From: Phyllobates terribilis
Lineage: Eukaryota
Assembly (NCBI RefSeq): GCF_046119375.1
Contig: NW_027362771.1
Location: 82,026,001-82,090,000, forward strand
Length of the DNA stretch: 64,000 nucleotides
Direction of reading: 5' to 3'
Shown: positions 5,765-63,682 of the stretch, piece after piece
Layout: each line of letters opens with the position of its first letter
Position numbering within the stretch: the stretch's first letter is position 1
The notes under the pieces: model-generated
What the model saw: the letters and a program-made list of their open reading frames with translations, nothing else
Told to the model about the DNA's origin: nothing
Database searches by the model: none
Position numbers and translations under genes: made by a program

Positions 5765-7055
5765 TGTAGCGCCCCGTGGGTTCGGCCGCTACAGGGGTAT
5801 TGCACCTCTGCCAGAGGTGTGCTATTCCACTCCCAGGTAAGGATGGAGTATGAACCAGGGCTCAGTTAGCTGCATACAGCACACACACCCCATTTCCGAG
5901 GGACAGCTCAACGGTGCTCCCACTAGACAGAAGTGCAGGCACGACCGACTATGTCCCTGTCTGGAGTGGGGAGGGGGGGTGGAACACCCAGTGCTGTAGG
6001 GGCAGATAGGGGTTGGTTCCTGAGCGTAGGAAGGAGCCCATTGGTTGCTGGTCACCTGGGCTCATGGTCAGAGGGAGGTATAAAAGGGGGGCACCATCTT
6101 AGCTCTGGGAGAAGAAGAGAGGAAAAGGGTCTGTCCAGAGAGGAGAGGACAGGGAGTAGAGGCTCTGTAGGAGCTCTACTCCAGGAGGGCCTAGTGAGAG
6201 GCCGAGGAGGAGGTGAAGGGGAGCTGTGGTGTCACCTCAGCTCAGCTCCACGAGAAGGGAGGAGAAGAAGGAACAGGAAAGAAGAAGGAGAGACAGAGAA
6301 ACAGAAGGGCTCAGGAACAAGAAGGAAGAAGGGACCCTAAGAACCCACGAGAATACAGGGTGAAGGGTCAGGCAGATTAAAGGTGCTGGATCCCAAGTTG
6401 GTGGAGGAGAAACTACCCTCAGCCAAAGACCGGACGTCGTGACCATTTATTGGTGCGACACCTCATCAAACCTGCTAGGAAGGCACCATATAGGACAGCG
6501 GAGGACGGGGCCCACGTTTAACCGCACGAGTCCGCGGCAGCTGGACAAAAGTGGGTCACTGGTGAGGCAGGCCAGAGAAAGGATTGAAGGGGGTCCTGAG
6601 CCATACTCTTGAGCTGCCTGGGAGTTGACCGAGCCCCTCACCTGGTGGACGCAGCACTGCTCGGGCGGTCATTCCCTGCAGAAGTGACTTGGATATTAAC
6701 CGTGAGTAAAGACCCTGGACTGCAGTACGTTGCCTGTGTGCTTTTTCGCTCCTCCGGCACTACCGGTACTGGGACTCTCACCACCATCACTCCCACCATC
6801 CACTACACTGCCCTGGCGCCGCACTCTTCCCGTGGGGAGTCACACCATCCCAACTGCATACATCATCGGCCTCAGCGGTCTGCCCTGCAGCGGCGGTTCC
6901 TAATAACCGCAATCCACGGGTGGCGTAGTCGGACCTTATCTAAAAGACTGCCACTGGTCTGACCACCCTGAGCCACGGGACCGGGTCGCCACTATTACCC
7001 CCATCGTCTCCCTATTGCCCGGTTCCGAGTGCCCCACGGCCCAGGGGGCGAGTCA
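5765..7055 (+). mobile_element. Solo LTR (1291 bp), same family as the LTRs of the CSD element
   Basis: TGTAGCGCCCC...GGGGGCGAGTCA; 4-bp TSD TAAG; TATA (GGTATAAAAG, ~6078) and AGTAAA (~6705); homologous to 7821-9097 and 27790-29062. Confidence 0.92.
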
Positions 7056-7820: not shown

Positions 7821-9568
7821 TGTAGCGCCCCGAGGGTTCGGTCGCTACAGAGGTATTGCACCTCAACCAGAGGTGTGATATCCCACTCCCGGGTAAGGAT
7901 GGTGTGTGGACCAGGACTCAGTTAGCTGCATGCATCACACACACCCCATTTCCAGGGGACAGCTCAACGGTGCTCCCATTAGTACAGTAATGCAGGCACG
8001 ACAGATCATGTCCCTGGCTGGAGGGGGGAGGACAACCCAGTGATGTAGGAGCAGGAGGGGACGGTTTCTGGGCATAGGTAGGAGCCCATTGGTTGCAAGT
8101 CACCTGGGCTCATACACAGAGAGGGAGGTATAAGAGGTGGGCACCATCTTAGAACAGAGAGGAGAGAGAGTTCAGTCATGCAGAGAAGAAGTGCAGTCTG
8201 TGAGGAGAGGCTCTGCAGGAGCTCTGCTCCAGGGCCAGGCCTAGAGTAGAGGCCGGGGCCCGAGAGAAGAGAGGAGAACAGAAAGGAAAGAAAGAAGGAA
8301 CAGAACACCAAGAGAGGCCCAGAGACATGAAGGCAGAAGGAACCCTAAGGACCCAGGAGATTACGGGTGACGGGTTGGTAGAACAGGGTACCGGATCCCA
8401 AGTTGGTGGAGGTGACTAATCATTAACCAAGAACCGGTGGTCGAGATCATTTACTGGTGCGACCCCTCACTACACCTACTAGGAAGGCACACCACATAGG
8501 GTCAGGGAAGTGGACACCCAGTCCTCCCAGGAGAAGACCCGAGGCAGCTGGACAGAAGTAGTGTCACTGGTGGATCACGGCTGACGAAAGGAGAGAAGGG
8601 AGTCTTGTGCCACACTCCGGAATTGCCTGGGGGTTGATCGAGCCCCCTGCCTGGTGGACGCAGCACGGCTCAGGCGGTCCTACCTGTGCACAAGTGACCT
8701 GGATGTGAACTGTGAGTAAAGAACCTGAACTGCAACACCTTGTCTCTGTGCTTCCTCACCGTGTACAGCACTACTAGTACTGGGACGCCCCGCACCACAA
8801 CCACCATCATCGTTCTACACTGCCCTGAGGCTATACTCCTCCCGTGGGGAGTTGTACTACACTCTGCTGCACCCACAACACCAGCCTCAGCGGTCTGCCC
8901 TGCAGCGGCGCTTCATCCTGACCGCAATCCACGGGTGGCGTAGTCGGACATTTAATCATAAAAAACACATAAATAGACTGCCACTGGTTTGACCACCCTG
9001 AGCCACGGGACCGGGTCGCCGCCACGGTGACTACAACCCTCAGCATCCACAAAAAGGCCCGGCTCCGGGCTCCCCACGCAGCCCAGGGGGCGCGTCAACT
9101 TTGGCGTAGTCGGCAGGATTGTGACCAACCCGCCACAAACGGGTATTGCGTGCCTGAAAAAGACTGTACACTTACTTGAAAAAGAGGTTTCCCGCCATCA
9201 GGAGCCGTTTCCCGCCATCTTCAGTCGTTTCCCGCCATCTTCAGCCGTTTTCCCGCCATCGGACGCCATCTTCGGGACGCCGCGCGGGAAGAAGAGGGGC
9301 GTGGATGTAAAAAACGCGCAAAGTTCGAAGCCCCGCCTCATGCGCTGACGCCGCACAAGGTCCTGGAAGGAGCCCAGCGAGCGCTGACGTCAGTAGCGCG
9401 CGACGCCAGGTCCTCAACGCAGACCATCGTCAGCGGAGCCGCGGCCTACAGAAGACGATCGTCGGAAGGTAGGCCACGGTTAACCAGGATCGCCACGGTG
9501 ACTACAAACCCCAGCATCCCACAAAAGGCCCGGTTCCGGGTTCCCCACGTGGCCCAGGGGGCGCGTCA
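7821..9568 (+). mobile_element. Deleted LTR retroelement: full 5' LTR (7821-9097), PBS, leader, and only the last ~78 bp of the 3' LTR (9491-9568)
   Basis: TGTAGCG start; GGGGGCGCGTCA ends at 9097 and 9568; 4-bp TSD CAGA on both sides; PBS at 9102-9120. Confidence 0.9.
9102..9120 (+). promoter_or_regulatory. Primer-binding site, tRNA-Ser
   Basis: TGGCGTAGTCGGCAGGATT, 4 nt after the LTR end; complementary to the vertebrate tRNA-Ser 3' end ...AATCCTGCCGACTACGCCA (recalled, not searched). Confidence 0.88.
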
Positions 9569-27785: not shown

Positions 27786-27789
27786 TTGT

Positions 27790-29062
27790 TGACGCGCCCC
27801 TGGGCCTGCTGTGTCGCGCGGCATCGCGCGCACGGGGGCTTACCCGGTGCCGGATCAGATGGGGGTAGTAGTCTTGTGGCGGTGACCCGGTCCGTGCCTA
27901 GGGAGTCAAACTGAGCGGCAGTATTTAGCAGTAGATGTTAGAATGTTCGACTACGCCACCCGTGGATTGCGGTCACGGGACCGCCGCTGCACGGCAGTCC
28001 GCCGAGGCCGGTGTTGTTTGTGCAGCTGAGAATGAGATGACTCCCCACGGGAGGAGTATGGCCTCAGGGCAGATCTGTTAGAGATGATGATGGGAGTGAT
28101 GGTGCGGGTGTCCCAGTGCTGAGGGTGCAGGTGTGACGGCAGGAACACAGAGGCGGGAAGTGCAGTTTCAAAAGCTTTACTCACAGTTCTTTATCAGATC
28201 CTTGTGCACAGTAGGACCACCCGAGCCGTGCTGCGTCCACCAGGTCAGGGACTCGGCCAACTCCCAGGCGATTCCAGAGCGTGGTCCAGAGCTCCCCTCT
28301 CTTCCTTCCTACTGGCCGTCCTCACCAGGGACCCACCTATGTCCGGCTTCCTCGGGCCTTATGGGGCAAAACCTCTCTCCGGCTTTCCTGACCCTATGTG
28401 GCGTGCCTTCCTGGTGGATGTGGCGAGGGGTCGTGCCAAAGCTTGACCACGACCTCCGGTTCCTGGCTAAGGATGATTGACCTCCACCAGTTTGGGATCC
28501 GGTACCCTTCTCTGCCAACCCTTCACCCGTTTTAGTTCACTCGTGGGATCTCAGGGTTCCTTCTGCTTGCGTCTCTGGGCCTTTCCTTGTGTTCCTCTTC
28601 TTCCTTCCCTCTCTATGCTTCAGGCCTGGCTCTGGAGCTGGGCCCAGACGGAGCCACAGCTCCCCCTCAGCCCTCTCTGGCTGAGCTCCTTTCTCCACTC
28701 CTCCAGGCTGAACAGACCCTGTCTAAAGATGGTGCCCACCTTATATACTCCCTCTGACACCCGAGCCCAGGTGACTAGCACCCAATGGGCTCCTACCTAT
28801 GCCCAGAGTCCCTCCCCTATCTGCTCCTATACTACTGGGATGTTCCTCCCCCCCCCCCACTCCAGCCAGGGACAGACGCTGTCGTACCTGCACATCTATC
28901 TGGTGGGAGTACCGTTGTTCTGTCCCCCGGAAATGGGGTGAGTGTAGTGTATGCAGCTATCTGAGCTCTGTCCCACACTCCATCCTTACCCGGGAGTGGA
29001 ATACCACACCTCTGGTTTGAGGTGCAATACTCCTGTAGCAGCCGAGTCCTCGGGGTGCTACA
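27790..29062 (-). repeat. 3' LTR (1273 bp)
   Basis: Direct repeat of 31385-32660; preceded on the minus strand by the PPT. Confidence 0.95.
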
Positions 29063-29071
29063 TTCCCCCCT
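29063..29071 (-). promoter_or_regulatory. Polypurine tract
   Basis: AGGGGGGAA directly abutting the TGTAG start of the 3' LTR. Confidence 0.85.
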
Positions 29072-29592
29072 GGTAAACCACAGCATGCCCTCGGGCTGGA
29101 AAAGAGCATAACATTATAAAACATACAAAATTTTTTTTTTTAAAGTACACACTAACATATAAAACATTATAAAAAACATTATCAGAAAATATAACATAAC
29201 AGGTAACTTCTTATATTATAATCTTAGCAGCATAAACTTTCAATATAAAACTCCTTCATATAAAACGTTCTTGTTCTTCCGGCCACGGTGCAACTTGTGA
29301 CCGGGTAAAGTGCAACAGTCACTAATAGAAAAAAAACAGTTCCTTATAAAACCAGTAGGGGGCGCCTGAAGAAGCGCAACTATTTACAGGGTATGGCCGC
29401 TCTCAGTCCTTGGCCAGTGGGAATAGGAGAACGGCTGCTCACAGTCCTCAGCCTGATTGGGGATAGGGGCACACAGGAAACAGTTCCTTTAAACAGTTCC
29501 ACACTAGTCCCAACGGGGACCACACTTCACTTAGCATATCGAATACCCATACGGGTAACTTATTTACAGTACTTTGCTTATGCTACTCCCCT

Positions 29593-30735
29593 TTAGTAGC
29601 GATGTCCTCCCCTTGTCCCCTCCTGAGGGTAGTCTTCAGACCTGTCCGGGTCCTCTTGATCTTCCTCATCCTGTATCTCCTCCTCCGTCAACCGGTGCAC
29701 GTGAAGGGCGTATGGTCCTTTGGCACACTGGTGCCGGGTGAAGGTGACCTCATCACCTGAGTAAAGGTCACGTCCTCGGTGTCCCTCCGGCAGGTGAGAC
29801 TCGACATCCCTGCGGGTGACAAAGACGTCGCCGGGGGTTCGGTGATCCCGGATAAAGCCCCAGCCATTCTCCAGCTGAAACTTTATCACAGTCCCAGTGG
29901 CGTGGGGACCGTGGGCCGTACGGGGGTTTCGTCGGGCCCGGCGTTTCTGCTCCGCGCTTTGGACCTGCAGCCGTTCCTCGCGGATCCGCCTCTCTCGCCG
30001 TTCTCTCCCAAAGACCTCTAACTGCTGACGGCAGCATTCCTCACGCCGGGCTGCGTCCGCCCGGGTCTCCTGGGTGAACCCCATGAGGTTTTCACCGGTG
30101 GGATCCCATGCAAATTGGGCCTCCTCCAGCGGGAGCGGAACAATTTTGGCGGGTGCCGGAGCCGGGATCAGAGGCTCACACAGAGGCCATTCCTTCCGGA
30201 GTCGGGGGTTGACGTACTCCGGTGGCCAAACGAAAGGCAGCCCGTCCGGGCTAGTATGCTGTGCGAACAGATCTTCACCCAGGGGTGGCACGGTGGAGGT
30301 AGAGGGCGCTGTAGGGGCAGCGGCGCCCGGGGGCGCTCGGCCTTGCGACCAGGCCGGGGGCACTTCCTCTTTTGCCGCGCTCAGGGTCCAGGGGCGTGGC
30401 GTAACAGAGGGCGCGACCGCGGCTCCTGCCGCTTGAGGCCTAGTTGGTAGCAGCGGCGGTGCGGCAACGAGCGCGGTGAGTGGAACTTCGGGCTCTGCGA
30501 CGGGGAGCTGGGGCAGGCTTACGGCTACTGGGCTCGGGGTGATGACGTCCCCATTACCTGCTTCCATCCCTGCGGCTCCCTCCGCGGCGTCGTCTCCGGC
30601 CTTCGTCCCTCCTGCACCATCCTCAGGGGCAGACATGCTCCACGATGCGGGTGGCGTCCTCTGCTGGCGGGTTCCAGCCTGCTGGACCATCTCCCTTCTC
30701 CACTCGGCCAGTGCTTCCTGCTGTACCTGGGCCAT
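29593..30735 (-). CDS. 380-aa protein: Pro/Ala-rich region, charged helical segment, cold-shock domain (aa ~279-349), acidic tail
   Basis: GTVIKFQLENGWGFI (RNP1-like), DVFVT (RNP2-like) and LYSGDEVTF...GPYALHV match the CSD/Y-box/Lin28 fold pattern; strong Kozak context (AAGATGG). Confidence 0.85.
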   Translation of the reverse strand: MAQVQQEALAEWRREMVQQAGTRQQRTPPASWSMSAPEDGAGGTKAGDDAAEGAAGMEAGNGDVITPSPVAVSLPQLPVAEPEVPLTALVAAPPLLPTRPQAAGAAVAPSVTPRPWTLSAAKEEVPPAWSQGRAPPGAAAPTAPSTSTVPPLGEDLFAQHTSPDGLPFVWPPEYVNPRLRKEWPLCEPLIPAPAPAKIVPLPLEEAQFAWDPTGENLMGFTQETRADAARREECCRQQLEVFGRERRERRIREERLQVQSAEQKRRARRNPRTAHGPHATGTVIKFQLENGWGFIRDHRTPGDVFVTRRDVESHLPEGHRGRDLYSGDEVTFTRHQCAKGPYALHVHRLTEEEIQDEEDQEDPDRSEDYPQEGTRGGHRY

Positions 30736-31127
30736 CTTCGGGCCAGGGCTTCCAGCGCGGTCTGTGCACGCTCCCGATCTCTGGGGAGCTGTGCCAGGAT
30801 CTCCACCAGGCCTTCTGGGGTGGCAGCCTGCAACAGGTTCCGGACCACAGGGTCAGTGCTGCTCGACTCTTCCTCCATCTCCGGGTGCGATCTGTCCAGA
30901 CTGCTCCAGGCCGCACCCATCTTCTCTGTTTTGTTCTCTATCCGCCCCCCTTGAGGGTGGTCCCGGGGCAACTTGGTGACAGTCAGTTCCAGGGGCAGCC
31001 CCCTCACGCTGATGGACATCTCTATCATTGCAGTCTCTGCTGGTGGGGGCGGTTTCCGCTTTTGGCGCCATTCTTGGACCTGGCCCACGATGGGAGGTGG
31101 CCTCTTGCCACCCTCTGGCACGCCCAT
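30525..31127 (-). CDS. Upstream ORF of the LTR element (200 aa from the first ATG); likely the frameshifted N-terminus of the CSD protein
   Basis: The track ORF at 31358 starts at GTG; the first ATG is at 31127 in good context (ATTATGG); overlaps the CSD ORF by 211 nt. Confidence 0.45.
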   Translation of the reverse strand: MGVPEGGKRPPPIVGQVQEWRQKRKPPPPAETAMIEMSISVRGLPLELTVTKLPRDHPQGGRIENKTEKMGAAWSSLDRSHPEMEEESSSTDPVVRNLLQAATPEGLVEILAQLPRDRERAQTALEALARRWPRYSRKHWPSGEGRWSSRLEPASRGRHPHRGACLPLRMVQEGRRPETTPRREPQGWKQVMGTSSPRAQ

Positions 31128-31360
31128 AATGGAGTCCGCTCTGCCAGGGCGGGAAATCGTCTCAGATGGCGGGAATCGTCTCCTTATGGCGGGAAACTCC
31201 GTGGATGGCGGGAAAAGGCTGCAGATGGCGGGCAAACGGCGGGAAACGACCCGAGATGGCGTCCGATGGCAGGAACCCTCTGGAATTGGCGGGAGACTCC
31301 TTTTTACGGTAAATGTGAACTTTTCTTCAGGCACGCAGTACCCGGTGGTTGCGGGCACGT

Positions 31361-31379
31361 AATCCTGCCGACTACGCCA
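31361..31379 (-). promoter_or_regulatory. Primer-binding site, tRNA-Ser
   Basis: TGGCGTAGTCGGCAGGATT, 5 nt inside the 5' LTR end; identical to 9102-9120. Confidence 0.88.
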
Positions 31380-31384
31380 AAAGT

Positions 31385-32660
31385 TGACGCGCCCCTGGGC
31401 CTGCTGTGTCGCGCGGCATCGCGCGCACGGGGGCTTACCCGGAGCCGGATCAGATGGGGGTAGTAGTCTTGTGGCAGTGACCCGGTCCGTGCCCAGGGAG
31501 TCAAACTGAGCGGCAGTATTTAGCAGTAGATGTTAGAATGTTCGACTATGCCACCCGTGGATTGCGGTCACGGGACCGCCGCTGCACGGCAGTCCGCCGA
31601 GGCCGGTGTTGTTTGTGCAGCTGAGAATGAGATGACTCCCCACGGGAGGAGTATGGCCTCAGGGCAGATCTGTTAGAGATGATGATGGGAGTGATGGTGC
31701 GGGTGTCCCAGTGCTGAGGGTGCAGGTGTGACAGCAGGAACACAGAGGCGGGAAGTGCAGTTTCAAAAGCTTTACTCACAGTTCTTTATCAGATCCTTGT
31801 GCACAGTAGGACCACCCGAGCCGTGCTGCGTCCACCAGGTCAGGGACTCGGCCAACTCCCAGGCGATTCCAGAGCGTGGTCCAGAGCTCCCCTCTCTTCC
31901 TTCCTACTGGCCGTCCTCACCAGGGACCCACCTATGTCCGGCTTCCTCGGGCCTTATGGGGCAAAACCTCTCTCCGGCTTTCCTGACCCTATGTGGCATG
32001 CCTTCCTGGTGGATGTGGCGAGGGGTCGTGCCAAAGCTTGACCACGACCTCCGGTTCCTGGCTAAGGATGATTGACCTCCACCAGTTTGGGATCCGGTAC
32101 CCTTCTCTGCCAACCCTTCACCCATTTTAGTTCACTCGTGGGATCTCAGGGTTCCTTCTGCTTGCGTCTCTGGGCCTTTCCTTGTGTTCCTCTTCTTCCT
32201 TCCCTCTCAATGCTTCAGGCCTGGCTCTGGAGCTGGGCCCAGACGGAGCCACAGCTCCCCCTCAGCCCTCTCTGGCTGAGCTCCTTTCTCCACTCCTCCA
32301 GGCTGAACAGACCCTGTCTAAAGATGGTGCCCACCTTATATACTCCCTCTGACACCCGAGCCCAGGTGACTAGCACCCAATGGGCTCCTACCTATGCCCA
32401 GAGTCCCTCCCCTATCTGCTCCTACACTACTGGGATGTTCCTCCCCCCCCCCCCCCACTCCAGCCAGGGACAGACGCTGTCGTACCTGCACATCTATCTG
32501 GTGGGAGTACCGTTGTTCTGTCCCCCGGAAATGGGGTGAGTGTAGTGCATGCAGCTATCTGAGCTCTGTCCCACACTCCATCCTTACCCGGGAGTGGAAT
32601 ACCACACCTCTGGTTTGAGGTGCAATACTCCTGTAGCAGCCGAGTCCTCGGGGTGCTACA
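31385..32660 (-). repeat. 5' LTR (1276 bp)
   Basis: TATATAA at 32336-32342 and AGTAAA at 31771-31776 on the minus strand; followed by the PBS. Confidence 0.95.
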
Positions 32661-33030
32661 TTGTAAAGGCCTAAAGTTAAAAATGACACATTTCCTTTAT
32701 ATTTAAGGCAAAAAAGAAATATTTTTTCATCTTTTACAATTTAAAAATTACAAAAAGCAAACTGGGCCGATTAAAAAGTTTGGGCATCCTGTATAGTTAG
32801 TACAGGGCAGCACCCCCTTTTGAAAGTATCACAGCTTGTAAACACTTTCTGTAGCCATCCAAGTGTCTTTCAATTCTTATTTGAGGGATTTTCATCCATT
32901 CTTCGTTGGAAAATTCTTCTATTTTTGTGAGATTCCTGGGTCGTCTTGCATGCACTGCTATTTTGAGGTCTAGCCACAGATTTTTAAATGAAGCTCCGAT
33001 CAGGGGACTGTGAGAGCCATTGTAAACCCT

Positions 33031-34760: not shown

Positions 34761-35304
34761 AAATTCTGGACTGTAAGATGGTTTGTGAGAATCACTTCTA
34801 CTTTATAGACTGAAATACAGTCCTGAAGAGAGATGCTGACACCAAGCCCTAGGTTTAGTTATGAAGAGGTGTCAGCCAGACAACCTCATTACTAAACCTG
34901 TATGTAAAGAGTTAAATAAACACAAACACCGAAAATACACCACTTTAATTGAAATAAAACAGACACATCCTTTAATCATTTAAATTAACCCAATATACTC
35001 ACCCTAAGTTCCGACGGTAATCCAAGGGGTAAAGAAATGTCTCCGGTTTCTTTTTTCAAATATCTTTATTTAGCTCCAAAAAGCATTCATTGCTGTACAA
35101 AAAGGCATAATAAAATGCATGCAAAAACGCCCCAAAAACGCATGTTTTTTGCACAGCGTTTTTGCTGCCAGAAATATCTGCAATCAAATGCTCAACGTGT
35201 GCACATACCCTTAAGTTCAGATTGAACTCTTCCCTTTGTGTTGTATAACAAATCATAAAGAGTATACATATTTTCCAAAGACTTAATTATGTTTAAGTTA
35301 TATA

Positions 35305-36934
35305 CAGTACAGACCAAAAGTTTGGACACACCTTCTCATTTAAAGATTTTTCTGCATTTTCATGACTTTGAAAATTGTACATTCACACTGAAGGCATCAA
35401 AACTATGAATTAACACATGTGGAATTATATACTTAACAAGAAAGTGTGAAACAACTGAAAATATGTTTTATATGCTAGGTTCTTCAAAGTAGCCACCTTT
35501 TGCTTTGATGACTGCTTTGCATACTCTTGGCATTCTCTTGATGAGCTTCAAGAGGTAGTCACCGGAAATGGTCTTCCAACAATCTTGAAGGAGTTCCCAG
35601 AGATGCTTAGCACTTGTTGGCCCTTTTGCCTTCACTCTACGGTCCAGCTCACCCCAAACCATCACGATTGGGTTCAGGTCTGGTGACTGTGGAGGCCAGT
35701 TCATCTGGCGTAGCACCCCATCACTCTCCTTCTTGGTCAAATAGCCCTTACACAGCCTGGAGGTGTGTTTGGGGTCATTGTCCTGTTGAAAAATAAATGA
35801 TGGTCTAACTAAACGCAAACCGGATGGAATAGCATGCCGCTGCAAGATGCTGTGGTAGCCATGCAGGTTCAGTATGCCTTCAATTTTTAATAAATCCCCA
35901 ACAGTGTCACCAGCAAAGCACCCCCACACCATCACACCTCCTCCTCCATGCTTCACGGTGGGAACCAGGCATGTAGAGTCCATCCTTTCACCTTTTCTGC
36001 GTCGCACAAAGACACGGTGGTTGGAACCAAAGATCTCAAATTTGGACTCATCAGACCAAAGCACAGATTTCCACTGGTCTAATGTCCATTTCTTGTGTTC
36101 TTTAGCCCAAACAAGTCTCTTCTGCTTGTTGCCTGTCCTTAGCAATGGTTTCCTAGCAGCTATTTTACCATGAAGGCCTGCTGCACAAAGTCTCCTCTTA
36201 ACAGTTGTTGTAGAGATGTGTCTGCTGCTAGAACTCTGTGTGGCATTGACCTGGTCACTAATCTGAGCTGCTGTTAACCTGCGATTTCTGAGGCTGGTGA
36301 CTCGGATAAACTTATCCTCAGAAGCAGAGGTGACTCTTGGTCTTCCTTTCCTGGGACGGTCCTCATGTGAGCCAGTTTCTTTGTAGCGCTTGATGGTTTT
36401 TGCAAATGGACTTGGGGACACTTTCAAAGTTTTCCCAATTTTTCGCACTGACTGACCTTCATTTCTTAAAGTAATGATGGCCACTCGTTTTTCTTTACTT
36501 AGCTGCTTATTTCTTGCCATAATACAAATTCTAACAGTGTATTCAGTAGGACTATCAGCTGGTTATCCACCAGACTTCTGCACAACACAACTGATGGTCC
36601 CAACCCCATTTATAAGGCAAGAAATCCCACTTATTAAACCTGACAGGGCACACCTGTGAAGTGAAAACCATTTCCGGTGACTACCACTTGAAGCTCATCA
36701 AGAGAATGCCAAGAGTGTGCAAAGCAGTCATCAAAGCAAAAGGTGGCTACTTTGAAAAACCTAGAATATAAGACATATTTTCAGCTGTTTCACACTTTTT
36801 TGTTAAGTATATAATTCCACATGTGTTAATTCATAGTTTTGATGCCTTCAGTGTGAATGTACAATTTTCATAGTCATGAAAATACAGAAAAATCTTTAAA
36901 TGAAAAGTTATGTCCAAACTTTTGGTCTGTACTG
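35305..36934 (-). mobile_element. Tc1/mariner DD38E (Intruder-type) element, copy 1 (1630 bp)
   Basis: TA|CAGTACAGACCAAAAGTTTGG...|TA; 268-bp TIRs; full-length ORF. Confidence 0.95.
35468..36520 (-). CDS. 350-aa DD38E transposase with catalytic Glu replaced by Val (probably inactive)
   Basis: WSDESKF, QQDND, then SPDLNPIVMVW (copy 2 has PIEMVW); GRPR hook present. Confidence 0.9.
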   Translation of the reverse strand: MARNKQLSKEKRVAIITLRNEGQSVRKIGKTLKVSPSPFAKTIKRYKETGSHEDRPRKGRPRVTSASEDKFIRVTSLRNRRLTAAQISDQVNATQSSSSRHISTTTVKRRLCAAGLHGKIAARKPLLRTGNKQKRLVWAKEHKKWTLDQWKSVLWSDESKFEIFGSNHRVFVRRRKGERMDSTCLVPTVKHGGGGVMVWGCFAGDTVGDLLKIEGILNLHGYHSILQRHAIPSGLRLVRPSFIFQQDNDPKHTSRLCKGYLTKKESDGVLRQMNWPPQSPDLNPIVMVWGELDRRVKAKGPTSAKHLWELLQDCWKTISGDYLLKLIKRMPRVCKAVIKAKGGYFEEPSI

Positions 36935-37666
36935 TACACCAAAAATGAAATATACGTCTTTGAGATTTTAGATGTCATCTGGATCCAGATTCTTCTCTAC
37001 CGCACATCAATGATCTAAGAGGTCACCTTCCTTTGCCAAGAGTTTTGTTTTGGCTTCTTATGCAGTCTTTTCTCTGCTAGACATGCACATTAGTAGTGCC
37101 TCTATTAAAAAGTGCAACAATAGTGTATAGGCTTTTGTATACAAAGAATTGCTGCTCCTCAGAGCAGGTAATAATTCGCATGCAAACAAAATGTCCTTGG
37201 CACATCTGAATATACAAAGAGATGAGGCTCATGTTAAAATAAGTGCTTTGTGCTTTTAATCTCAGTAGTGGTTGCCAGAATTATTGCATAGCTGAGTCTC
37301 CTTCTGTTCTTATTGATAGAATGAACGCAATAATCCTTCTGTCATAGTCCATGTCTTTATTCCCTAGTCTTTGTACATCACCCACCGGAGCAGAATATGG
37401 CAAGACTAAATAGAACTATCTCACTTCAAAAAATATTTTTAGCTACTGTATCATCAATCAAATCTTCAGCCCTCTTCTGCATAAGTTACATTTGAGAAGT
37501 TTGCTTTCTTCTTGCTCTTGAATAATTTACACAGTATATTTTGATTAATTGCAGATAGGCACTCTTGGGATAAATCAATTCAATATATCTTGAGAAAAGT
37601 TGTCAGCTGCATTTGGAGCCCAAAACATTGATCTAAAACATGTATCACTTTGGAACCAACATTTTA

Positions 37667-45726: not shown

Positions 45727-46073
45727 CTCATAAGTAAACATATCTGCAAACTTTTTCTGAAGACAACCAGTTACAAGAAAAAAAGGCTAGTTAAAGGGAT
45801 TGGATATTTTTTGTTTCTTTTAACAAGTGTGTTGGGGACTTAATCTTGTTACACTTACTAATACATAAGTATGATTGGTTCTGCACTGTTTGTGCAGCTT
45901 TCATCACAGACTGCTTTGCACTCCTCAAAATGGCAGTTGATGGAGGTGCATGTGACTAGACCTATCAATTAGCCTCTAGTGATGGGCAAGCACTAAAATG
46001 CTGGGGTGCTCGATGGTCTGGTCGAGCAAATTGGAATACTCGGGTGCTCGACCCGAGCAACGAGCCCAATGTA

Positions 46074-47702
46074 CAGTACAGACCAAAAGTTTGGACATCC
46101 TTCTCATTTAAAGATTTTTCTGTATTTTCATGACTATGAAAAGTGTACATTCACACTGAAGGCATCAAAACTATGAATTAACACATGTGGAATTATATAC
46201 TTAACAAGAAAGTGTGAAACAACTGAAAATATGTTTTATATGCTAGGTTCTTCAAAGTAGCCACCTTTTGCTTTGATGACTGCTTTGCACACTCTTGGCA
46301 TTCTCTTGATGAGCTTCAAGAGGTAGTCACCGGAAATGGTCTTCCAACAATCTTCAAGGAGTTCCCAGAGATGTTTAACACTTGTTGGCCCTTTTGCCTT
46401 CACTCTGCGGTCAAGCTCACCCCAAACCATCTCGATTGGGATCAGGTCTGGTGACTGTGGAGGCCAGGTCATCTTGCGTAGCACCCCATCACTCTCCTGC
46501 TTGGTCAAATAGCCCTTACACAGCCTGGAGGTGTGTTTGAGGTCATTGTCCTGTTGAAAAATACATGATGGTCCAACTAAACGCAAACCGGATGGAATGG
46601 CACGCCGCTGCAAGATTCTGTGGTAGCCATACTGGTTCAGTATGCCTTCAATTTTGAATAAATCCCCAACAGTGTCATCAGCAAAGCACCCCCACACCAT
46701 CACATCTCCTCCTCCATGCTTCACGGTAAGAACCAGGCATGTAGAGTCCATCCGTTCACCTTTTCTGCATCGCACAAAGACACGGTGGTTGTAACCAAAG
46801 ATCTCAAATTTGGACTCATCAGACCAAAGCACAGATTTCCACTGGTCTAATGTCCATTCCTTGTGTTCTTTAGCCCAAACAAGTCTCTTCTGCTTGTTGC
46901 CTGTCCTTAGCAGTGGTTTCCTAGCAGCTATTTTACCATGAAGGCCTGCAGCACAAAGTCTCCTCTTAACAGTTGTTGTAGAGATGTGTCTGCTGCTTGA
47001 ACTCTGTGTGGCATTGACCTGGTCTCTAATCTGAGCTTCTGTTAACCTGCGATTTATGAGGCTGGTGACTCGGATAAACTTATCCTCAGAAGCAGAGGTG
47101 ACTCTTGGTCTTCCTTTCCTGGTGTGGTCCTCATGTGAGCCAGTTTCTTTGTAGCGCTTGATGGTTTTTGCAACTGCACTTGGGGACACTTTCAAAGTTT
47201 GCCCAATTTTTCGCACTGACTGACCTTCATTTCTTAAAGTAATGATGGCCACTCGTTTTTCTTTACTTAGTTGCTTTTTTCTTGCCATAATACAAATTCT
47301 AACAGTCTATTCAGTAGGATTATCAGCTGTGTATCCACCTGACTTCTGCACAACACAACTGATGGTCCCAACCCCATTTATAAGGCAAGAAATCCCACTT
47401 ATTAAACCTGACAGGGCACACCTGTGAAGTGAAAACCATTTCCGGTGACTACCTCTTGAAGCTCATCAAGAGAATGCCAAGAGTGTGCAAAGCAGTCATC
47501 AAAGCAAAAGGTGGCTACTTTGAAGAACCTAGAATATAAGACATATTTTCAGTAGTTTCACACTTTTTTGTTAAGTATATAATTCCACATGTGTTAATTC
47601 ATAGTTTTGATGCCTTCAGTGTGAATGTACAATTTTCATAGTCATGAAAATACAGAAAAATCTTTAAATGAGAAGGTGTGTCCAAACTTTTGGTCTGTAC
47701 TG
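46074..47702 (-). mobile_element. DD38E (Intruder-type) element, copy 2 (1629 bp), inserted in a hAT subterminal region
   Basis: TA TSD; the empty site CCCAATGTAAGTCTATGGG is seen in the paralog near 50240. Confidence 0.95.
46236..47288 (-). CDS. 350-aa DD38E transposase, uninterrupted ORF with intact D-D-E triad
   Basis: WSDESKF; QQDNDL...SPDLIPIEMVW with 38 residues between the second Asp and the Glu. Confidence 0.92.
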   Translation of the reverse strand: MARKKQLSKEKRVAIITLRNEGQSVRKIGQTLKVSPSAVAKTIKRYKETGSHEDHTRKGRPRVTSASEDKFIRVTSLINRRLTEAQIRDQVNATQSSSSRHISTTTVKRRLCAAGLHGKIAARKPLLRTGNKQKRLVWAKEHKEWTLDQWKSVLWSDESKFEIFGYNHRVFVRCRKGERMDSTCLVLTVKHGGGDVMVWGCFADDTVGDLFKIEGILNQYGYHRILQRRAIPSGLRLVGPSCIFQQDNDLKHTSRLCKGYLTKQESDGVLRKMTWPPQSPDLIPIEMVWGELDRRVKAKGPTSVKHLWELLEDCWKTISGDYLLKLIKRMPRVCKAVIKAKGGYFEEPSI

Positions 47703-49723
47703 TAAGTCTATGGGAAACTGGAGCATTTTTCAGGCGTCTCCCCCTGGCGGTCTGCAGAGGGCCTAAAAATTGCCCAAATCGATGGGAACAGTGCTCAAAT
47801 GACATGGGAATAGCATGGGGAAGACCCCTGGAAGCATTTCTGACTCAAAGATCACTGATGTCAACAACGTTGTTAGAGGTATTACGCCACTTTTACGGAC
47901 TCACAATAAAACATACAAAAAATAATCCAAAATGCATTTTCCTGGGAAATATGTTAAGGAACATCCTTTTCAGGGTAATGACTTGTATATAAGGCAAAAT
48001 AAATAACCAAAACCAAAATTACTCCTCCACACCTTGGGCTATGTTCACACGTAGCATTTTTGATGCGTTTTTGCACTTTTGCATTGCTTTCAACCAAGAC
48101 TAATGCATTCACTGGGAAATGTGATTTTAACATTTTACAACCTTATCTGGCCTTTTAGGCTCGTGGAGGCGGAAGCTTTTCACAACCTCAAGCCGGCGGC
48201 GGCCGGGTGTCCATACTCAGTCCCCAGCCGCTACTATTTGTCTCAGTGTCGTCTCCACCTTCCACAAGCACGGGTCCCACAACATTACCAGTGACCTCCC
48301 CAGTGAACTTACTGGGAAGGACCGCCTACCCACAAACACGTGGTCAAGTGAATGTGACCAGGGACTGTGCGGAGCCAGTCCACAGCTTTTTTTGCTGAGT
48401 TGTATTTCACCACAGCCATATTTTTGGACTTCGGAAGGAAATCATATCTACTTCAGCTGTCATTTCTCCTAGGAAATCCTCTAAAGCATCTTTCACTTGA
48501 AATGTGGCCTTTTAGGCTCATGGTGGCGGAAGCTTTTCACAACCTAATGCCGGTGGCGGCCGGGTGTCCATACTCGGTCTCCAGCCGCCACTATTTCTCC
48601 CGGTATCGTCTCCGCCTTCCACAAGCACGGGTCCCACAACATTACCCGTGCCCTCCCCAGTGCACTTACTGGGAAGGACCGCCTAATCACAAACACGTGG
48701 ACAGGTGAATGTGGCCATGGACGGTACAGAGCCAGTCCACAGCTTTTTTTGCTGACAGTTGTATTTCACCACAGCCATATTCTTTAGCTTTATGAAAGGA
48801 CTGGCATAGAGGGAAACCGTATCTTCTCTGCGTGTGATTTCTCCTAGGAAGTCCTCTAATGCAGCTTGTTGCAGAAGCAATGGCAGTCCATCCAACATAA
48901 GCTCGCACTTGTCGGTGTTGCTTCGACACACAAACCTCTTTATTTGCACCTTTAATTTCATGACTGCAGAGTTGGGCAATGGCCTGATCTGCAATGCGGT
49001 TTGAGAAATAACATGCATAAGCACGTCCAATCCACATTAAAAAAGCAGCCATAGAGTGTCCGGGAACCTTCCCACACACTTTTCTTAGCCAGGGCTTCTT
49101 TTCGGCTGGGCTGTACGGGCCCACCAGAGAACCAGAGACTCCTCTGGTGTGCCCTAGCTTCTCCTTCAGGATTGTTCATAGTGCCAAGGTGAGACCATGA
49201 TGATGATAGAGGCCACCATCTGCTTAGTTTTCCGTTACTTGGAATTCAAGCGCAAGTATGCAGCCAGCCACCCATCCACCCACAGGCCGCAATACTAAAC
49301 TGCCAGATTTCTGGGCAGCTGCTTGCACTTTAAATTTGGCCTTTTAGGCTCGTGGAGGTGGAAGCTTTTCACAACCTCATGTCGGCGGCAGCCGGGTGTC
49401 CATACTTTGTCCTCAGCCGCCACTATTTCCCCCGGTATCGCCTCGGCCTTCTACAAGCTCGGGTCCCTGAACATTACTGCTGGTACTTTTCTGTGGGAAT
49501 CTGCTTGCCTCCTACCAGCCTGGAATATTTCCAGTAAACTATGGTACGACGCAATGGTATTAGCACTGCCCCCAGTAGCAAAGCCATCCCCAATTTCCTT
49601 CTCAGGAATTTTATTTGGTAGACTGAGTGGCTGCCCAAATACATTAGTTTCTCACAAAGGAGCAGAAGATAGAGTGGCAGTAGGTTCAAGTTTCTCCAGC
49701 CTGTTAGATATTAGAGGGTGAAC

Positions 49724-49967
49724 GGCAGCACATTGGATCAGTGGTTAGCACTGAAGCCTTGCAGCCTATGGCTGCTTTTTTACTGAGGTGGAAACGCACA
49801 CAAAAACGGGGAGAACATACAAAATCATTGCAGATGTTGTCCTTGCTGGGATTTGAACCCAGGATCCCACCTGGGTTCAAATCCCAGCAAGGACAACATC
49901 TGCAACGATTTTCTATGTTCTCCCCGTGTTTGCGTGCGTTTCCACCTCAGTAAAAAAGCAGACATAG
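49724..49967 (+). mobile_element. tRNA-derived V-SINE-like fragment with a fold-back duplication
   Basis: Same head as 53281; 49766-49863 is the reverse complement of 49870-49967. Confidence 0.7.
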
Positions 49968-52900
49968 AGTGTCCGGGAACCTTCCCACACACTTTTCTTA
50001 GCCAGGACTGCTTCTTGGCAGGGTTGGACGGTCCCACCAGAGAATCCTCTGGTGTGCCCTGGCTTCTACATCAGAAGAGTTCATGATAGCGCTAACTTTG
50101 CAGTTGCTATGGGGCTCTTGAGCGGGGAAGAAAAGTGAGCCCTCAGAATTAGTGATGAGCGAGCACTAAAATGCTCGGGTACTCATTGCTCGGGTGGAGA
50201 AAATTGTAATACTCGGGTACTTGACCCGAGCAACGAGCCCAATGTAAGTCTATGGGAAACTCGAGCATTTTTCAGGCGACTCCCCCCGGCGGTCTGCAGA
50301 GGGCCTAAAAATTGCCCAAATCGATGGGAACAGTGCTCAAATGACATGGGAACAGCATGGGGAAGACCCCTGGAAGCATCTCTGACTCCCAGATCACTGC
50401 TGTCAGCAACGTGGTCAGAGTATTACGCCACTTTTATGGACTCACAATAAAACATACAAAAATGAAACCAAAATGGATTTTCCTGGGAAATATGTTAAGG
50501 AACATCCTTTCCAGGGTAATGACTTCTATATAAGGCAAAATAAATGACCAAAAACAAAACTACTCCTTCACAACTTGGGTTATTTTCACACGTAGCGTTT
50601 TTGATGCGTTTTTGCACTTTTGAATTGCTTTCAACCAAGACAAATGCATTCACCAGGAAATGTCATTTTAACATTTTACAACCTTATCTGGCCATGTGGT
50701 GTGTGGCAAATCATCAGACACATGCATACAGTGCTGAAAAGACATGGGAACAGCATGGGGAAGACCTCTGGAAGCATCTCTGACTCCCAGGTCACTGCCT
50801 AAAAGTGTGCCCATCATAAGTGATCCTTGGCGCATGCGAAGATGCCTCCCGCCATGCACCTGTCATTGCAGACTTGCAACAATCACCGTCCAAGTCCTTG
50901 TCCCACTGCAACGTTCAGTTGTCCCTACCCCGTTCCTTGGAATGCAAGCGCAAGTATGCCGGGAGCCACCCACCCCCCACAGGCTGCAATACTATACTGC
51001 CTAATTTTTGACAGCTGCTTGCACTTGAAATGTGGCCTTTTAGGCTCGTGGAGGCGGAAGCTTTTCACAACCTCATGCCGGCGGCGGCTGGGTGTCCATA
51101 CTCGGTCACCAGCCGCCACTATATTTCCAAGTATCGCCTCCACCTTCCACAAGCACGGGTCCCACAACATTACCCGTGCCCTCCCCAGTGCACTTACTGG
51201 GAAGGACCGCCTAACCACAAACACGTGGACAGGTGAATGTGGCCAGGGATGGTACGGAGCCCGTCCACAACTTTTTTTGCTAAGAGTTGTATTTAGCTCG
51301 GTGAAAGGACTGACATAGTGGGAAACTGTATGTACCTGCGTGTCATTTCTGCTAGGAAGTCCTGTAATTGAGCTTGTTGCAGAAGCAATGGCAGCCCATC
51401 CAACATCAGCTCGCCCTTGTCGGTGGAGCTTTGACACACACACATCTTTCTTTGCGCATTTAATTTCTTGAATACAGAGTTGGACAATGGCCTGATCTGT
51501 AATGCGTTTTGAGAAATAACATGCATAAGCATGGCCGATCCACATTAAAAAAGCAGCCATAGAGTGTCCGGGAACCTTCCCCCACACTTTTATTAGCCAG
51601 GGCTGCTTTTCGGCAGGGTTGGACCGGCCCACCAGAGAACCTGAGACTCCTCCGGCGGGCCCTAGCTTCTCCTTCAGAAGAGTTCATAGTGTTGAGGTGA
51701 GGCCATGATGATGATAGAGGCCACCATTTGCTTAGTTTTCAGTTACTTGGAATGCAAGTGCAAGTATGCAGCCAGCCACCCACCCACCCACAGGATGCAA
51801 CACTAAACTGCCAGATTTCTGGGCAGCTCTTGCACTTGAAATATGGCCTTTTAAGCTCGTGGAGGTGGAAGCTTTTCACAACCTCATGCCGGCGGCGGCC
51901 GGGTGTCCATACTCGGTCCCCAGCAGCCACTATATTTCCCGGTATCGCCTCCGCCTTCCACAAGCACGGGTCCCACACCATTACCTGTGCCCTCCCCAGT
52001 GCACTTACTGGGAAGGACCGCCTAACCACAAACACGTGGACATGTGAATGTGACCAGGAACGGTACAGAGCCAGTCCACAACTTTTTTTGCTAAGAGTTG
52101 TATTTAGCTCGGTGAAAGGACTGGCATAGAGGGAAACCGTATGTACCCTTGGTGTCATTTCTCCCAGGAAGTCCTCTAATGCAGCTTGTTGCAGAAGCAA
52201 TGGCAGCCCGTCCAACATCAACTCGCACTTGTCGGAGGTGCTTTGACACACACACACACATCTTTCTTTGCGCATTTAATTTCTTGAATAGAGAGTTGGA
52301 CAATGGCCTGATCTGTAATGCGGTTTAAGAAATAACATGCATAAGCATGGCCGATCCACATTAAAAAGCAGCCATAGAGTGTCCAGGAACCTTCCGCCAT
52401 ACTTTTCTTAGCCAGGGCTGCTTCTCGGCAGGGTTGAACGGGCCCACCAGAGAACCAGAGACTCCTCCGGTGGGCCCTGGCTTCTCCTTCAGGAGAGTTC
52501 ATAGTGCCAAGGTGAGGCCATGATGATGATAGAGGCAACCATCTGCTTAGTTTTATGTTACTTGGTATGCAAGTGCAAGTATGCAGCCAGACATCCCACC
52601 CACCCACAGGCCGCAACACTAAACTGCCAGCTTTATGGGCAGTTCTTTGCACTTGAAATATGGCCTTTTAAGCTCGTGGAGGCGGAAGCTTTTCACAACC
52701 TCATGCCGGCGGCAGCCGGGTGTCCATACTCGGTCCCCAGCAGTCACTATATTTCCCGGTATTGCCTCCGCCTTCCACAAGCACGGGTCCCACAACATTA
52801 CCTGTGCCCTCCCCAGTGCACTTACTGGGAAGGACCGCCTAACCACAAACACGTGGACATGTGAATGTGACCAGGAACGGTACGGAGCCAGTCCACAACT

Positions 52901-53280
52901 TTGTTTGCTAAGAATTGTATTTAGCTCGGTGAAAGGACTGGCATAGAGGGAAACCGTATGTACCCTTGGTGTCATTTCTCCCAGGAAGTCCTCTAAAGCT
53001 GCTTGCACTTGAAATGTGGCCTGAACATTACTGCTGGTACTTTTCTGTGGGAATTTGCTTGCATCCTACCAGCCGGGAATATTTCCAGCAAACTATGGTA
53101 CAACGCCATGGTATTAGCACTGTCCACAGTACCAGTAGCGAAGCCATTCCCAATTTCCTTCTCAGGAATTTTATTTGGTAGACTGACTGGCTGCCTAAAT
53201 ACATTTTCTCACAAAGGAGCTGAAGATAGAGTGGCAGTAGATGCAAGTTTCTCCAGCCTGTTAGATATTAGAGGGTGAAC

Positions 53281-53408
53281 GGCAGCACATTGGATCAGTG
53301 GTTAGCACTGAAGCCTTGCAGCGCTGGGATCCTGGGTTCAAATCCCAGCAAGGACAACATCTGCAAGGACTTTGTATGTACTCCCCGTGTTTGCGTGTGT
53401 TTCCTCAT
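53281..53408 (+). mobile_element. tRNA-derived SINE (V-SINE-like) 5' portion
   Basis: A-box-like TGGATCAGTGGTTAGC, B-box GGTTCAAATCC (53335-53345), V-domain-like TCCCCGTGTTTGCGTG. Confidence 0.72.
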
Positions 53409-54337
53409 CAGTAAAAAAGCAGCCATAGAGTGTCCGAGAACCTGCTTCTCGGCAGGGTTGGACAGTCCCACCAGAGAATCCTCTGTTGTGCCTTGGCTTC
53501 TACCTCAGGAGAGTTCATTATAGCGCTAACTTTGCTGCTGCTATGGGGCTCTTGAGCGGGTAAGAAAGGTTAGCCCTCAGAATCAAATCCTCTGGTGGGC
53601 ACAATGTTTTTCATTCTGAAACAGCTTCTCAGTGGGAGTTGTATTTCACCACAGCCATATTCTTTAGCTCGGTGAAAGGACTGGCATAGATGGAAACCGT
53701 ATCTACCCCAGCTGTCATTTCTCCGTCACCAGGTTCAGCAGTGAGAGCCACAGATCAGGCTGCTGTGTTTCAGCTTTCAACAACTCTGCTGCGCTGGGCG
53801 GTTTGTCAATTAAGCATTAAGCATGTTATCTTGAGCACAGCCTGTTGCCGCTTGGCCAAGGCAGTGCTGTCAGCTTGTGACTGATGTGGTCATTTCGGAG
53901 ATGGAGGAGGAGGTGCATGAGCTGAACAATGTGATTACATTGAGGTTAGATTGGTGACGCTGTGTTTTATACTAAAGAAAGATCCTATTGTTTTGTTTTT
54001 TTTACGTTCTTTTTAAGACAAATGCATTCACCGGGAAATGTCATTTTAACATTTTACAACCTTATCTGGCAATGTGGTGTGTTACACATAATCAGACACA
54101 TCCTTTTTATTTATGATGGAGGGACTCTGAATGTCATAAAGCCTATTTTTATAGGGACATCAGACGGCCCTTACTATTCTTAAAAGGCCAGCAGTCGGCC
54201 CTAGCTATTGTTAGAGAGCCATCAGCCGGCTATGCTTTGTTGTTCCCATTATTAACAAGTGGTCTCCTATACTGTTATTGCGTATCCAGTGACTGCAAGG
54301 GCTGCCAAAAATGTGGACGCAACCCAATAAGAAATTA

Positions 54338-55735
54338 AAGAATTTAAAGACACACAGAGTAGGGCCACAGTAACAAGGTACGACATGTTCCAATTAGAAA
54401 GGAGAGGGTCTGCTATACAGTTATAGGGTATGCAGTGAGTCCAACAGCTGACCAAATTTAGGAAAAACCCCACTAACAATTTAAAGACACATAGCGCAGG
54501 GCCACAGTAATGAGTACGATATGTTTCCATTAGAAAGGAGAGCGTCTGCTATACAGTTATACGGTATGCAGTGAGTCCAACGGCTGACCAAATTTAAGAA
54601 AAACCCCACTAAGAATTTAAAGACACATTGAGCAGGACCACTGTAAGAAATACAACATGCTCCCATTAGAAAGGAGAGAGTCTTCTATATAGTTATAGGG
54701 TATGCAGTGAGTCCAACAGCTGACCAAATTTTGGAAAAACCCCACTAAGAATTTAAAGACACAGAGCAGGGCCACAGTAACGAATACGACATGTTCCAAT
54801 TAGAAAGGAGAGGGTCTGCTATACAGTTATACGGTATGCAGTGAGTCCAACGGCTGACCAAATTTAGGAAAAACCCCACTAAGAATTTAAAGACACATAG
54901 AGCAGGGCCACTGTAACAAGTACGACATGTTTCCATTAGAAAGGAGAGGGTTTGCTATACAGTTATAGGGTATGCAGTTAGTCCAACGGCTGATCAAATT
55001 TAGGAAAAACCCCACTAAGAATTTAAAGACACATAGAGCAGGGACACAGTAATGAGTACGACATGTTCCCATTACAAAGGAGAGGGTTTGCTATACAGTT
55101 ATAGGGTATGCAGTTAGTCCAACGGCTGACCAAATTTAGGAAAAACCCCACTAAGAATTTAAAAACACATAGAGCAGGGCCACTGTAATGAGTACGACAT
55201 GTTTCCATTAGAAATGAGAGGGTCTGCTATACAGTTATAGGGTATGCAGTGAGTCCAACTGCTGACCAAATTTAGGAAAAACCCCACTAAGAATTTAAAG
55301 ACACATAGAGCAGGGCCACAGTAACGAGTATGACATGTTCTCATTAGAAAGGAGAGAGCTTGCTATATAGTTATAGTGTATGCAGTGAGTCTAACAGCTG
55401 ACCAAATTTAGGAAAAACCCCACTAAGAATTTAAAGACACCGAGCAGGGCCACAGTAACGAGTACGATATGTTCCCATGAGAAAGGAGAGAGTCTGCTAT
55501 ACATTTATAGGGTATGCAGTGAGTCCAATGGCTTACCAAATTTAGGAAAAACCCCACTAACAATTTAAAGACACATAGAGCAGGGCTACAGTAACGAGTA
55601 CGACATTTTCCCATTATAAAGAAGAGGGTCTGCTATACATTTATAGGGTATGCAGTGAGTCCAACGGATGACCAAATTTAAGAAAAACCCCACTAATAAT
55701 TTAAAGACACATAGAGCAGTGCCACAGTAACAACA
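54338..55735. repeat. 136-bp tandem repeat, about 10 copies
   Basis: AAATTTAGGAAAAACCCCACTAAGAATTTAAAGACAC recurs about every 136 bp; short ORFs in the track repeat with the same period. Confidence 0.93.
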
Positions 55736-57372: not shown

Positions 57373-57756
57373 GACACAGTCGCTCCGGATCAGACAGTGT
57401 AGGGACAGCGCTGCTGATTTAGGGAGAGATATATCTTGCAAAATAGTTAGTGTAGGGTCTGTAAAGGCTGCCAGATCAAACAAACAGTCCTTCTCAGGAC
57501 TAATATCCATCCCAGGTATATCAGGCAGGCAGGCAGGCAGGCTGTATAGGAGACGCAGTGGTTATACCAGCAAACGCTGCATTACAGTCCTGTGTGCTGC
57601 TCCTGTTGCTGAAATTGCTGGACTTAGCTCCAGGTCCCGGGGGCCAGGAAAAATCCTTTTTTTTTATCTAAATCCTCTTTTTTTTTTCCTCCTTCACAAT
57701 GTACAAATACCCATCTTATTAACCTTTTGGTGCCCCCCCCCCCCCCAAAAAAAAAG

Positions 57757-63373: not shown

Positions 63374-63682
63374 TGACGCGCCCCCTGGGCCGTGTGTACA
63401 CGTGTGTGGGATACCCGGTGCCGGGTCTCTGGGGTCTGTAGTCTCCGTGGCGGTGACCCGGTCCCGTGGCTCAGGCTGGTCAAACCAGTGGCAATCTTTC
63501 TTAGGTTTTGAGGTTAATTGTCCGACTGCGCCACCCGTGGATTGCGGTCAGGGAGTACCACCGCTGCGAGGCAGACCGCTGAGGCTGGTGTTGTGTGCGC
63601 AGCATAAAATGGGATAACTCCCCTCGGGAGGAGTATAGCCTCAGGGCAGTGAGTGTGGATGATGGGGGTGATGGTGCACGAG
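63374..63682 (-). mobile_element. 3' end (U5) of an LTR of the CSD-element family, interrupted by a hAT insertion
   Basis: TGACGCGCCCCCTGGG start, GCGCCACCCGTGGATTGCGGTC; expected TSD CATG. Confidence 0.88.

Follow-up and report, generated by a model that had tools for sequence, protein, structure and literature searches.

A young frog LTR retrotransposon family without pol keeps a Y-box-type cold-shock domain under strong purifying selection and appears to depend on a Ty3/Gypsy helper

Results

A full-length long terminal repeat (LTR) element occupies positions 27790–32660, on the minus strand, of a 64,000-nucleotide stretch of the Phyllobates terribilis genome (contig NW_027362771.1, positions 82,026,001–82,090,000; hereafter the window). 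The cis signals that an earlier note on this DNA had called intact were all located: LTRs of 1273 and 1276 bp that are about 99% identical (10 mismatches and 3 gap columns, 0.8% divergence) and run TG..CA when read on the minus strand, the target-site duplication (TSD) TTGT at both ends, a 19-nt primer-binding site (PBS) and a polypurine tract (PPT). The interior, read in the same note as free of reverse transcriptase (RT), protease, integrase and CCHC knuckles, likewise yielded no YxDD, D[ST]G[AS], CCHC or GPF motif in a six-frame scan, and the single Pfam match among its four longest frames was a cold-shock domain (CSD, PF00313), at E 2.6e-8 and with 34.1 bits where the cut-off is 27. The element appears to belong to a family of satellite, that is non-autonomous, LTR retrotransposons riding on an active Ty3/Gypsy helper. 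The borders of U3, R and U5 within its LTRs are placed provisionally from TATA-like and poly(A)-like motifs, and its leader holds six CCCGCCR repeats (31167–31293). We take the PBS to be of the tRNA-Ser type; the 3 of 37 sites that were examined were variants of the element's own PBS and held no host tRNA gene. ARAGORN reported no tRNA in the window, and an Rfam scan gave two chance-level matches only.

The exact junction of LTR end and PBS occurs 49,881 times in the 10.57-Gb assembly (reversed control, 0). Across the genome the CSD motif was counted 21,666 times and the helper RT motif 21,542 times, against 0 for the controls; these are lower bounds, the motifs having been built from sampled copies. 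The copies analysed below come from the first 60 of 100 listed junctions, all within the first 13 Mb of contig C1: 28 lead into gag and pol, 2 into gag only, 23 into a CSD gene, 4 into the N-terminus of that gene without a CSD and 3 into other sequence, and at none of the 60 do pol and CSD occur together within 4 kb. LTR pairs of the 23 CSD copies differ by 0–1.0%, four pairs being identical, and a 4-bp TSD is present in 20 of 22; subfamilies of the CSD protein share 63–93% protein identity. The CSD-less members (L062, L066, L075 and L105; 4 of 27 sampled) keep the N-terminal open reading frame (ORF), and two of them, L062 and L075, have LTRs 99.8% identical and are possible free-riders.

The gene proved longer than first described. 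The 'uninterrupted 380-aa ORF' of the earlier note is only the 3′ piece left after a single-base frameshift near 30740 in a frame that opens with an ATG at 31127, and a 380-aa product was rejected because sister copies have one open frame from the upstream ATG. Sister L002, 99% identical, reads through 511 aa from the corresponding ATG, and the full protein measures about 510–630 aa in sister copies. From the MGV start to the stop the frame is open in 18 of the 23 CSD copies (574–716 codons stop to stop), with in-frame length changes among these; it is broken in the other five, as in the window copy. In 11 of the 18 no other ATG lies between the LTR and the MGV ATG, and we place the translation start there because the leader upstream evolves near-neutrally (below). 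The protein comprises a helical module, a disordered Pro/Ala linker, a charged helix, the CSD and a short tail, acidic then basic. A full-length structure model, mostly of low confidence (mean pLDDT 47, pTM 0.23), places helices at residues 93–156 and 356–400, then a long disordered linker and the CSD, and its good structural matches were CSDs only; the ESM Atlas gave no usable match for the whole protein or the helical module. A Gag remnant was considered and rejected: the ORF has no Pfam gag match (blastp E>=1.6, hhalign probability 0.07), no similarity to helper Gag or Pol and no CCHC zinc knuckle, and no capsid fold was seen in the full-length model, a weak negative at pTM 0.23. Contigs of 4 of 10 listed runs, all of unrecorded library type, were compared: depth in X5 was far greater on the element interior (about 700–29,000) than in most flanking bins (0–260), a contrast not seen in X1, X2 and X7; such depths cannot rank expression.

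The CSD itself, inferred in the earlier note from motifs, is borne out by the profile match and by a modelled barrel. AlphaFold gave pLDDT 85–94 across the barrel, the model matched CspA and YBX1/2 in Foldseek (probability 1.00), and the fold is predicted to be a five-stranded OB barrel of the CSD type. Profiles of element CSDs rank YBX1 and YBX2 first (53 and 61 bits), then bacterial Csp (44, 49) and LIN28 (30, 27), with CARHSP1 and CSDE1 last; LIN28, which the earlier note had offered as a model, is thus a poor one (27 bits versus 61 for YBX). Structure alignments put the element and YBX CSDs at about 30–34% identity, and since only about one third of residues are shared the capture is probably old. 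As in YBX1 and YBX2 (FRGY2), there is a long beta3–beta4 loop and a Pro/Ala-rich region upstream of the CSD, but in the element the domain is C-terminal with a tail of about 30 aa, and its gene is intronless, lies inside LTRs and exists in thousands of copies. A host YBX gene or a recent YBX retrocopy was rejected on the low identity, the short tail and a grouping, at a support of 86/85 only, separate from host CSDE1 and YBX-like retrocopies; a LIN28 retrocopy was rejected as well.

The RNA-binding face has also changed. RNP1 (WGFI) retains its aromatics, but RNP2 reads VFVT: 11 of the 12 element CSDs aligned lack the canonical His, most rows showing Arg-Arg after its replacement, and the Trp of the K-W-F motif of YB-1 is replaced too. 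We take these residues to be His87 and Trp65 of YB-1. The available text of two sources gives RNP1 as [YF]GFI and RNP2 as ending in His (PMC7825780), and describes the RNP2 His and K-W-F Trp, under that numbering, as contacting RNA in YB-1 (PMC7226217); both report that the YB-1 CSD binds CAUC, that CSDs bind single-stranded DNA (ssDNA) as well as RNA and that YB-1 promotes strand annealing (PMC7825780, PMC7226217). CATC occurs at 4.6 per 300 nt in the leader versus 0.8 downstream.

Codon models were fitted to the 18 open-frame copies, the 5 broken ones being left out, with trees re-estimated per region in fast mode. The ratio dN/dS (omega) runs along the element from 0.93 in the leader through 0.58 (N-terminus), 0.22 (helical module), 0.58 (Pro/Ala region) and 0.18 (pre-CSD helix) to 0.049 in the CSD and 0.35 in the tail; a test against omega=1 gives 2dlnL values of 339 (CSD) and 0.2 (leader), and pairwise substitution counts agree. 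With helper RT at 0.053 (22 copies) and helper gag at 0.31 (21 copies), the CSD appears constrained as tightly as helper RT. The frameshift in the window copy might suggest a one-off captured host fragment that hitch-hikes neutrally. Such a passenger is very improbable: the CSD read in shifted frames gives dN/dS of 3.5 and 5.1 against its own 0.049, 18 of 23 copies have open frames with in-frame length changes, and the capture looks old. Neutral capture was rejected on the codon models and on shared CSD variants, which, with broken copies included (22 of 23), number 65 synonymous and 9 non-synonymous on 53:154 sites. The earlier note had allowed for a one-off capture; instead, about 21,700 copies have the ORF, and purifying selection on it is strong.

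The gag-pol partner that a trans-mobilised family would need, and that the earlier note proposed to search for, was found among the same junctions, sharing U5, PBS, leader and PPT. Eight helpers were followed over their full length (7.4–8.1 kb; LTRs of about 1 kb, 98.2–100% identical); none of the eight carries a CSD. They encode a PNMA-like Gag ending in CCHC and a Pol in the order PR-RT-RH-IN, whose best PDB match is Ty3 Pol (E 8e-100). By this sequence evidence the helper is an intact Ty3/Gypsy element, its domain order excluding Gmr1 as described in the available text of PMC4131045. What helper and CSD family have in common is confined to the final ~280 nt of the LTR (U5; ~80% identical between window element and helper), the PBS, 60–200 nt of leader and the PPT, and the block from -280 to +60..+200 around the LTR end is shared in 23 of 23 CSD copies. 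A TG two bases beyond the TSD (target positions -6/-5) is preferred by both, occurring in 9 of 22 CSD copies and 17 of 31 others, these 31 including two N-terminus-only copies. One junction in 60, L095 (C1:9101914-9108413; LTRs 99.4% identical), is a helper/satellite/helper mosaic of helper LTR and gag start (94%), 310 nt of CSD-element 3′ region (81%) and helper 3′ end (92%), the structure that template switching within a common particle would be expected to give. The earlier inference of a non-autonomous family mobilised in trans with its own CSD protein thus gains support from the domain, the helper and the selection; the suggested role as a nucleocapsid substitute is weakened, since helper Gag has its own CCHC knuckle.

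In 58 of the 60 helper and satellite loci a PBS-like copy sits in U5, 149–174 nt before the LTR end. It is possibly a second tRNA-binding site; the complement of this motif is absent from the sense strand, which leaves no internal stem. Such a site could need a chaperone, and given the ssDNA binding and annealing reported for CSDs and YB-1 (PMC7825780, PMC7226217) the protein might act as a DNA-level regulator that raises transcription or strand transfer of the element by binding ssDNA, either at the LTR promoter or as minus-strand cDNA. We consider this unlikely: that U5 site is present in the helper as well, which has a CCHC nucleocapsid and no CSD.

Twelve further CSD loci in the genome were examined over 10 kb each. 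Family B (2 of 12) is an older relative with 66% DNA identity to the window family and an omega of 0.20 (7 copies). Family C (3 of 12; 2,809 junctions genome-wide) has a different PBS in the two loci that keep one (L176 and L178), where PBS and U5 copy change together (TGGCGTCACGA). Family E (4 of 12; 591 junctions genome-wide) has an unrelated 1-kb LTR at 97.5%, an Arg-rich N-terminus and a 2.6-kb pol-less interior; it is represented by L181 and L183–L185 and on contigs C55, C103, C138 and C40, and many near-identical copies cluster on a few unplaced contigs. Divergent CSD ORFs at L179, L180 and L182 lie without an LTR pair within 10 kb, L182 with a family-C-type PBS and L180 with another PBS-like start. 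In a tree, the 17 element CSDs form a single group, separate from the host rows (support 86/85), and a subgroup of nine is well supported (100/99); the host rows are a decayed YBX-like retrocopy (C11:349412859-349413050) and CSDE1 retrocopies, 10 of 21 inner branches are open, and the donor cannot be named. A search for host YBX exons returned one match, the query itself. Intronless CSDE1 retrocopies stand in tandem at C1:734437889-734449260, and probable host CSDE1 exons lie at C2:702794338-702806288.

Related proteins are predicted in P. terribilis (70%), Ranitomeya variabilis, R. imitator, Anomaloglossus baeobatrachus and Bufo bufo, the last annotated 'Y-box-binding protein 2-A-like'. All named relatives are predicted frog proteins from these five species, to which one contig cluster is added; a crowded profile search (8000 candidates), and so a weak negative, found no element-type CSD outside hyloid frogs but that cluster. 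Frog gene models P0152, P0153, P0154, P0156, P0157, P0158 and P0163 fuse the element's CSD exon to unrelated host or Harbinger genes, through either annotation chimerism or exonisation. The element accounts for the spurious 'Y-box-binding protein 2-A-like' name and for chimeric frog gene models.

Annotation as genes in five species could also mean that selection acts on the frog, through a host-beneficial or 'addictive' gene. There are precedents in the available text of two studies: the young gag-only zebrafish elements Bik-1 and Bik-2 are required in development (PMC12067270), and pol-less Xenopus 1A11 and Xretpos peak at gastrula (PMC4585706). For the frog CSD protein we regard host benefit as distinctly unlikely, because constraint is spread over many amplifying subfamilies and some copies are broken (5 of 23 sampled, and the window copy), which is what selection acting through transposition looks like.

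Three other LTR pieces in the window (Table 1) are 71–77% identical to the element's LTR and appear to be older relatives from related subfamilies. The earlier note had counted four other insertions of the same LTR family; there are three, the twin LTR being no insertion. The internally deleted element consists of LTR, PBS, ~390 nt of leader and the final 78 nt of a 3′ LTR. Elsewhere, two 1.6-kb copies at 35300–36936 and 46069–47704, 96% identical with ~275-bp terminal inverted repeats, resemble a Tc1-like DNA transposon by shape, and tandem arrays and nested repeats (units of about 136, 145, 133 and 810–830 bp) occupy 54241–55935, 57747–59185, 62722–63373 and 48145–53322.

Table 1 Features of the element and of related LTR pieces in the window
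Feature	Position	Strand	Basis
TSD TTGT, element 5′ side	32661..32664	.	sequence repeat
5′ LTR, 1276 bp	31385..32660	-	LTR alignment
TATA-like box in 5′ LTR	32335-32341	-	motif
AGTAAA poly(A)-like signal in 5′ LTR	31770-31777	-	motif
Partial PBS duplicate within U5, first ~11 nt of PBS	31544..31557 (5′ LTR), 27949-27962 (3′ LTR)	-	motif
PBS, 19 nt, identical to helper's	31361..31379	-	motif
Untranslated leader, common to helper; candidate packaging region	31128..31360	-	
ORF 5′ part, ATG at 31127 (MGVPEG...) to frameshift; start of conserved helical module	30740..31127	-	
ORF 3′ part (380 aa): helical-module end, Pro/Ala-rich disordered region, Arg/Glu helix, CSD, tail	29593..30739	-	
Long Arg/Glu helix in ORF 3′ part	about 30078-29900	-	
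CSD, Y-box type; RNP1 WGFI, RNP2 VFVT-RR (His lost)	about 29695..29898	-	Pfam profile
3′ untranslated region, A/T-rich	29072..29592	-	
PPT AGGGGGGAA, identical to helper's	29063..29071	-	motif
3′ LTR, 1273 bp	27790..29062	-	LTR alignment
TSD TTGT, element 3′ side	27786..27789	.	sequence repeat
Related solo LTR, 71% identical to the element's LTR, TSD TAAG	5765..7055	+	
Related internally deleted element, TSD CAGA	7821..9568	+	
Related LTR fragment, 5′-cut, U5 end only	63374..63679	-	

Discussion

What does a parasite of a Ty3/Gypsy element gain from a cold-shock protein? Cis preference is known for LINE-1 ORF1p, and Y-box proteins coat stored mRNA in germ cells. In the reading we prefer, at a probability of roughly 0.45, cis-preferential RNA binding would stabilise the satellite RNA and improve its access to particles. 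Satellite RNA would enter particles of helper Gag, and helper Pol would then prime, copy and integrate it; the CSD protein would bind mainly the RNA that encodes it, coating and stabilising it in germ cells in the Y-box manner, and RNA so stabilised would be better represented in helper particles. Oligomerisation or particle contact would fall to the helical module, and the pyrimidine-rich CCCGCCAUC repeats adjoining the PBS are a candidate binding site. Strong selection across 21,666 copies suggests that the protein favours its own RNA, as constraint would otherwise be hard to keep, and cis action is further suggested because a diffusible product would benefit CSD-less copies equally, yet these make up only 4 of the 27 sampled.

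Several observations weigh against cis-preferential binding. The leader repeats also occur in the helper (mean 4.6 per copy) and were not seen in families C and E, and they may be a mere signal for helper Gag; the lost RNP2 His and Trp may have abolished CAUC specificity. Recent insertion without a CSD occurs, two of the four CSD-less members being very young, selection in family E is weak (omega 0.44, 5 distinct copies, 2dlnL 4), and the junction sample was drawn from a single stretch of one contig.

The shared leader repeats also fit a different role, counter-defence in trans, in which the protein would shield satellite and helper RNA alike from piRNA or decay pathways, or serve as a decoy to the host's Y-box proteins, and the two elements would amplify as partners. 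They match in abundance (helper 21,542, satellite 21,666) and in youth (LTR pairs 98–100% identical), the altered RNA-binding face would suit a decoy, and Gypsy RNA is high in the ova of a related frog, according to the available text of PMC6278860. This role nonetheless seems doubtful: free-riders could exploit a benefit that diffuses, and selection per copy should then be relaxed, and an omega of 0.049 would be unusually low and stable for an arms-race protein. Broader still, and similarly doubtful, is the proposal of a class of hyloid-frog satellite LTR elements (at least three LTR types and two PBS types) that centre on a Y-box CSD captured long ago, whose protein would mimic oocyte mRNA masking, protect satellite and helper RNA and help to cause the retrotransposon burst of giant poison-frog genomes; if true, this would be a two-component retroelement whose 'parasite' supplies the counter-defence gene.

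In helper-shared cis signals and trans mobilisation the family resembles LARD, TRIM, TR-GAG, MaLR, VL30 and ETn elements, which are non-coding or keep Gag-derived ORFs. We know of no non-autonomous LTR class in which purifying selection maintains an RNA-binding domain captured from the host. By its sequence the family works like known non-autonomous LTR elements, yet it differs from a Gag-only element (no Gag homology, no capsid fold seen, no CCHC). In the available text of the studies concerned, Xenopus 1A11 and Xretpos / lambda-olt 2-1 are likewise multicopy LTR elements of frogs that lack pol and have a single ORF, but with tens of ORF copies versus about 21,700 here, and the 71-kDa ORF of 1A11, compared by description only, is called Gag-like with no CSD mentioned (PMC4585706). 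Zebrafish BHIKHARI-1/-2 are likewise young non-autonomous families that keep one functional ORF; that ORF is Gag and the families are lokiretroviral (PMC12067270), whereas the frog ORF is non-Gag and its helper Ty3/Gypsy. Domains captured by LTR elements as accessory ORFs may aid trafficking or counter host defence, but those described adjoin gag-pol (PMC6431247), whereas here the CSD ORF is the sole gene. A full-text literature search found no description of a CSD in an LTR retrotransposon, although a repeat-library entry may exist; 'cold shock' is absent from the available text of PMC6278860, 10.1101/2023.11.06.565769, PMC12208295, PMC4131045, PMC6431247, PMC4585706 and PMC12067270, as is 'transposon' from that of PMC7825780.

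One expects a non-autonomous LTR element to code for nothing or for Gag alone; here a host-derived RNA-binding domain appears to be kept as tightly as helper RT by a satellite that matches its helper copy for copy. With every copy at full length (4.9 kb), the family would make up roughly 100 Mb, about 1% of the genome, solo LTRs uncounted; much of the repeat content of giant amphibian genomes is unclassified, according to the available text of PMC12208295. The CSD offers a small foldable protein for testing how satellites compete for helper particles and by what means transposons in giant amphibian genomes evade control in the germ line.

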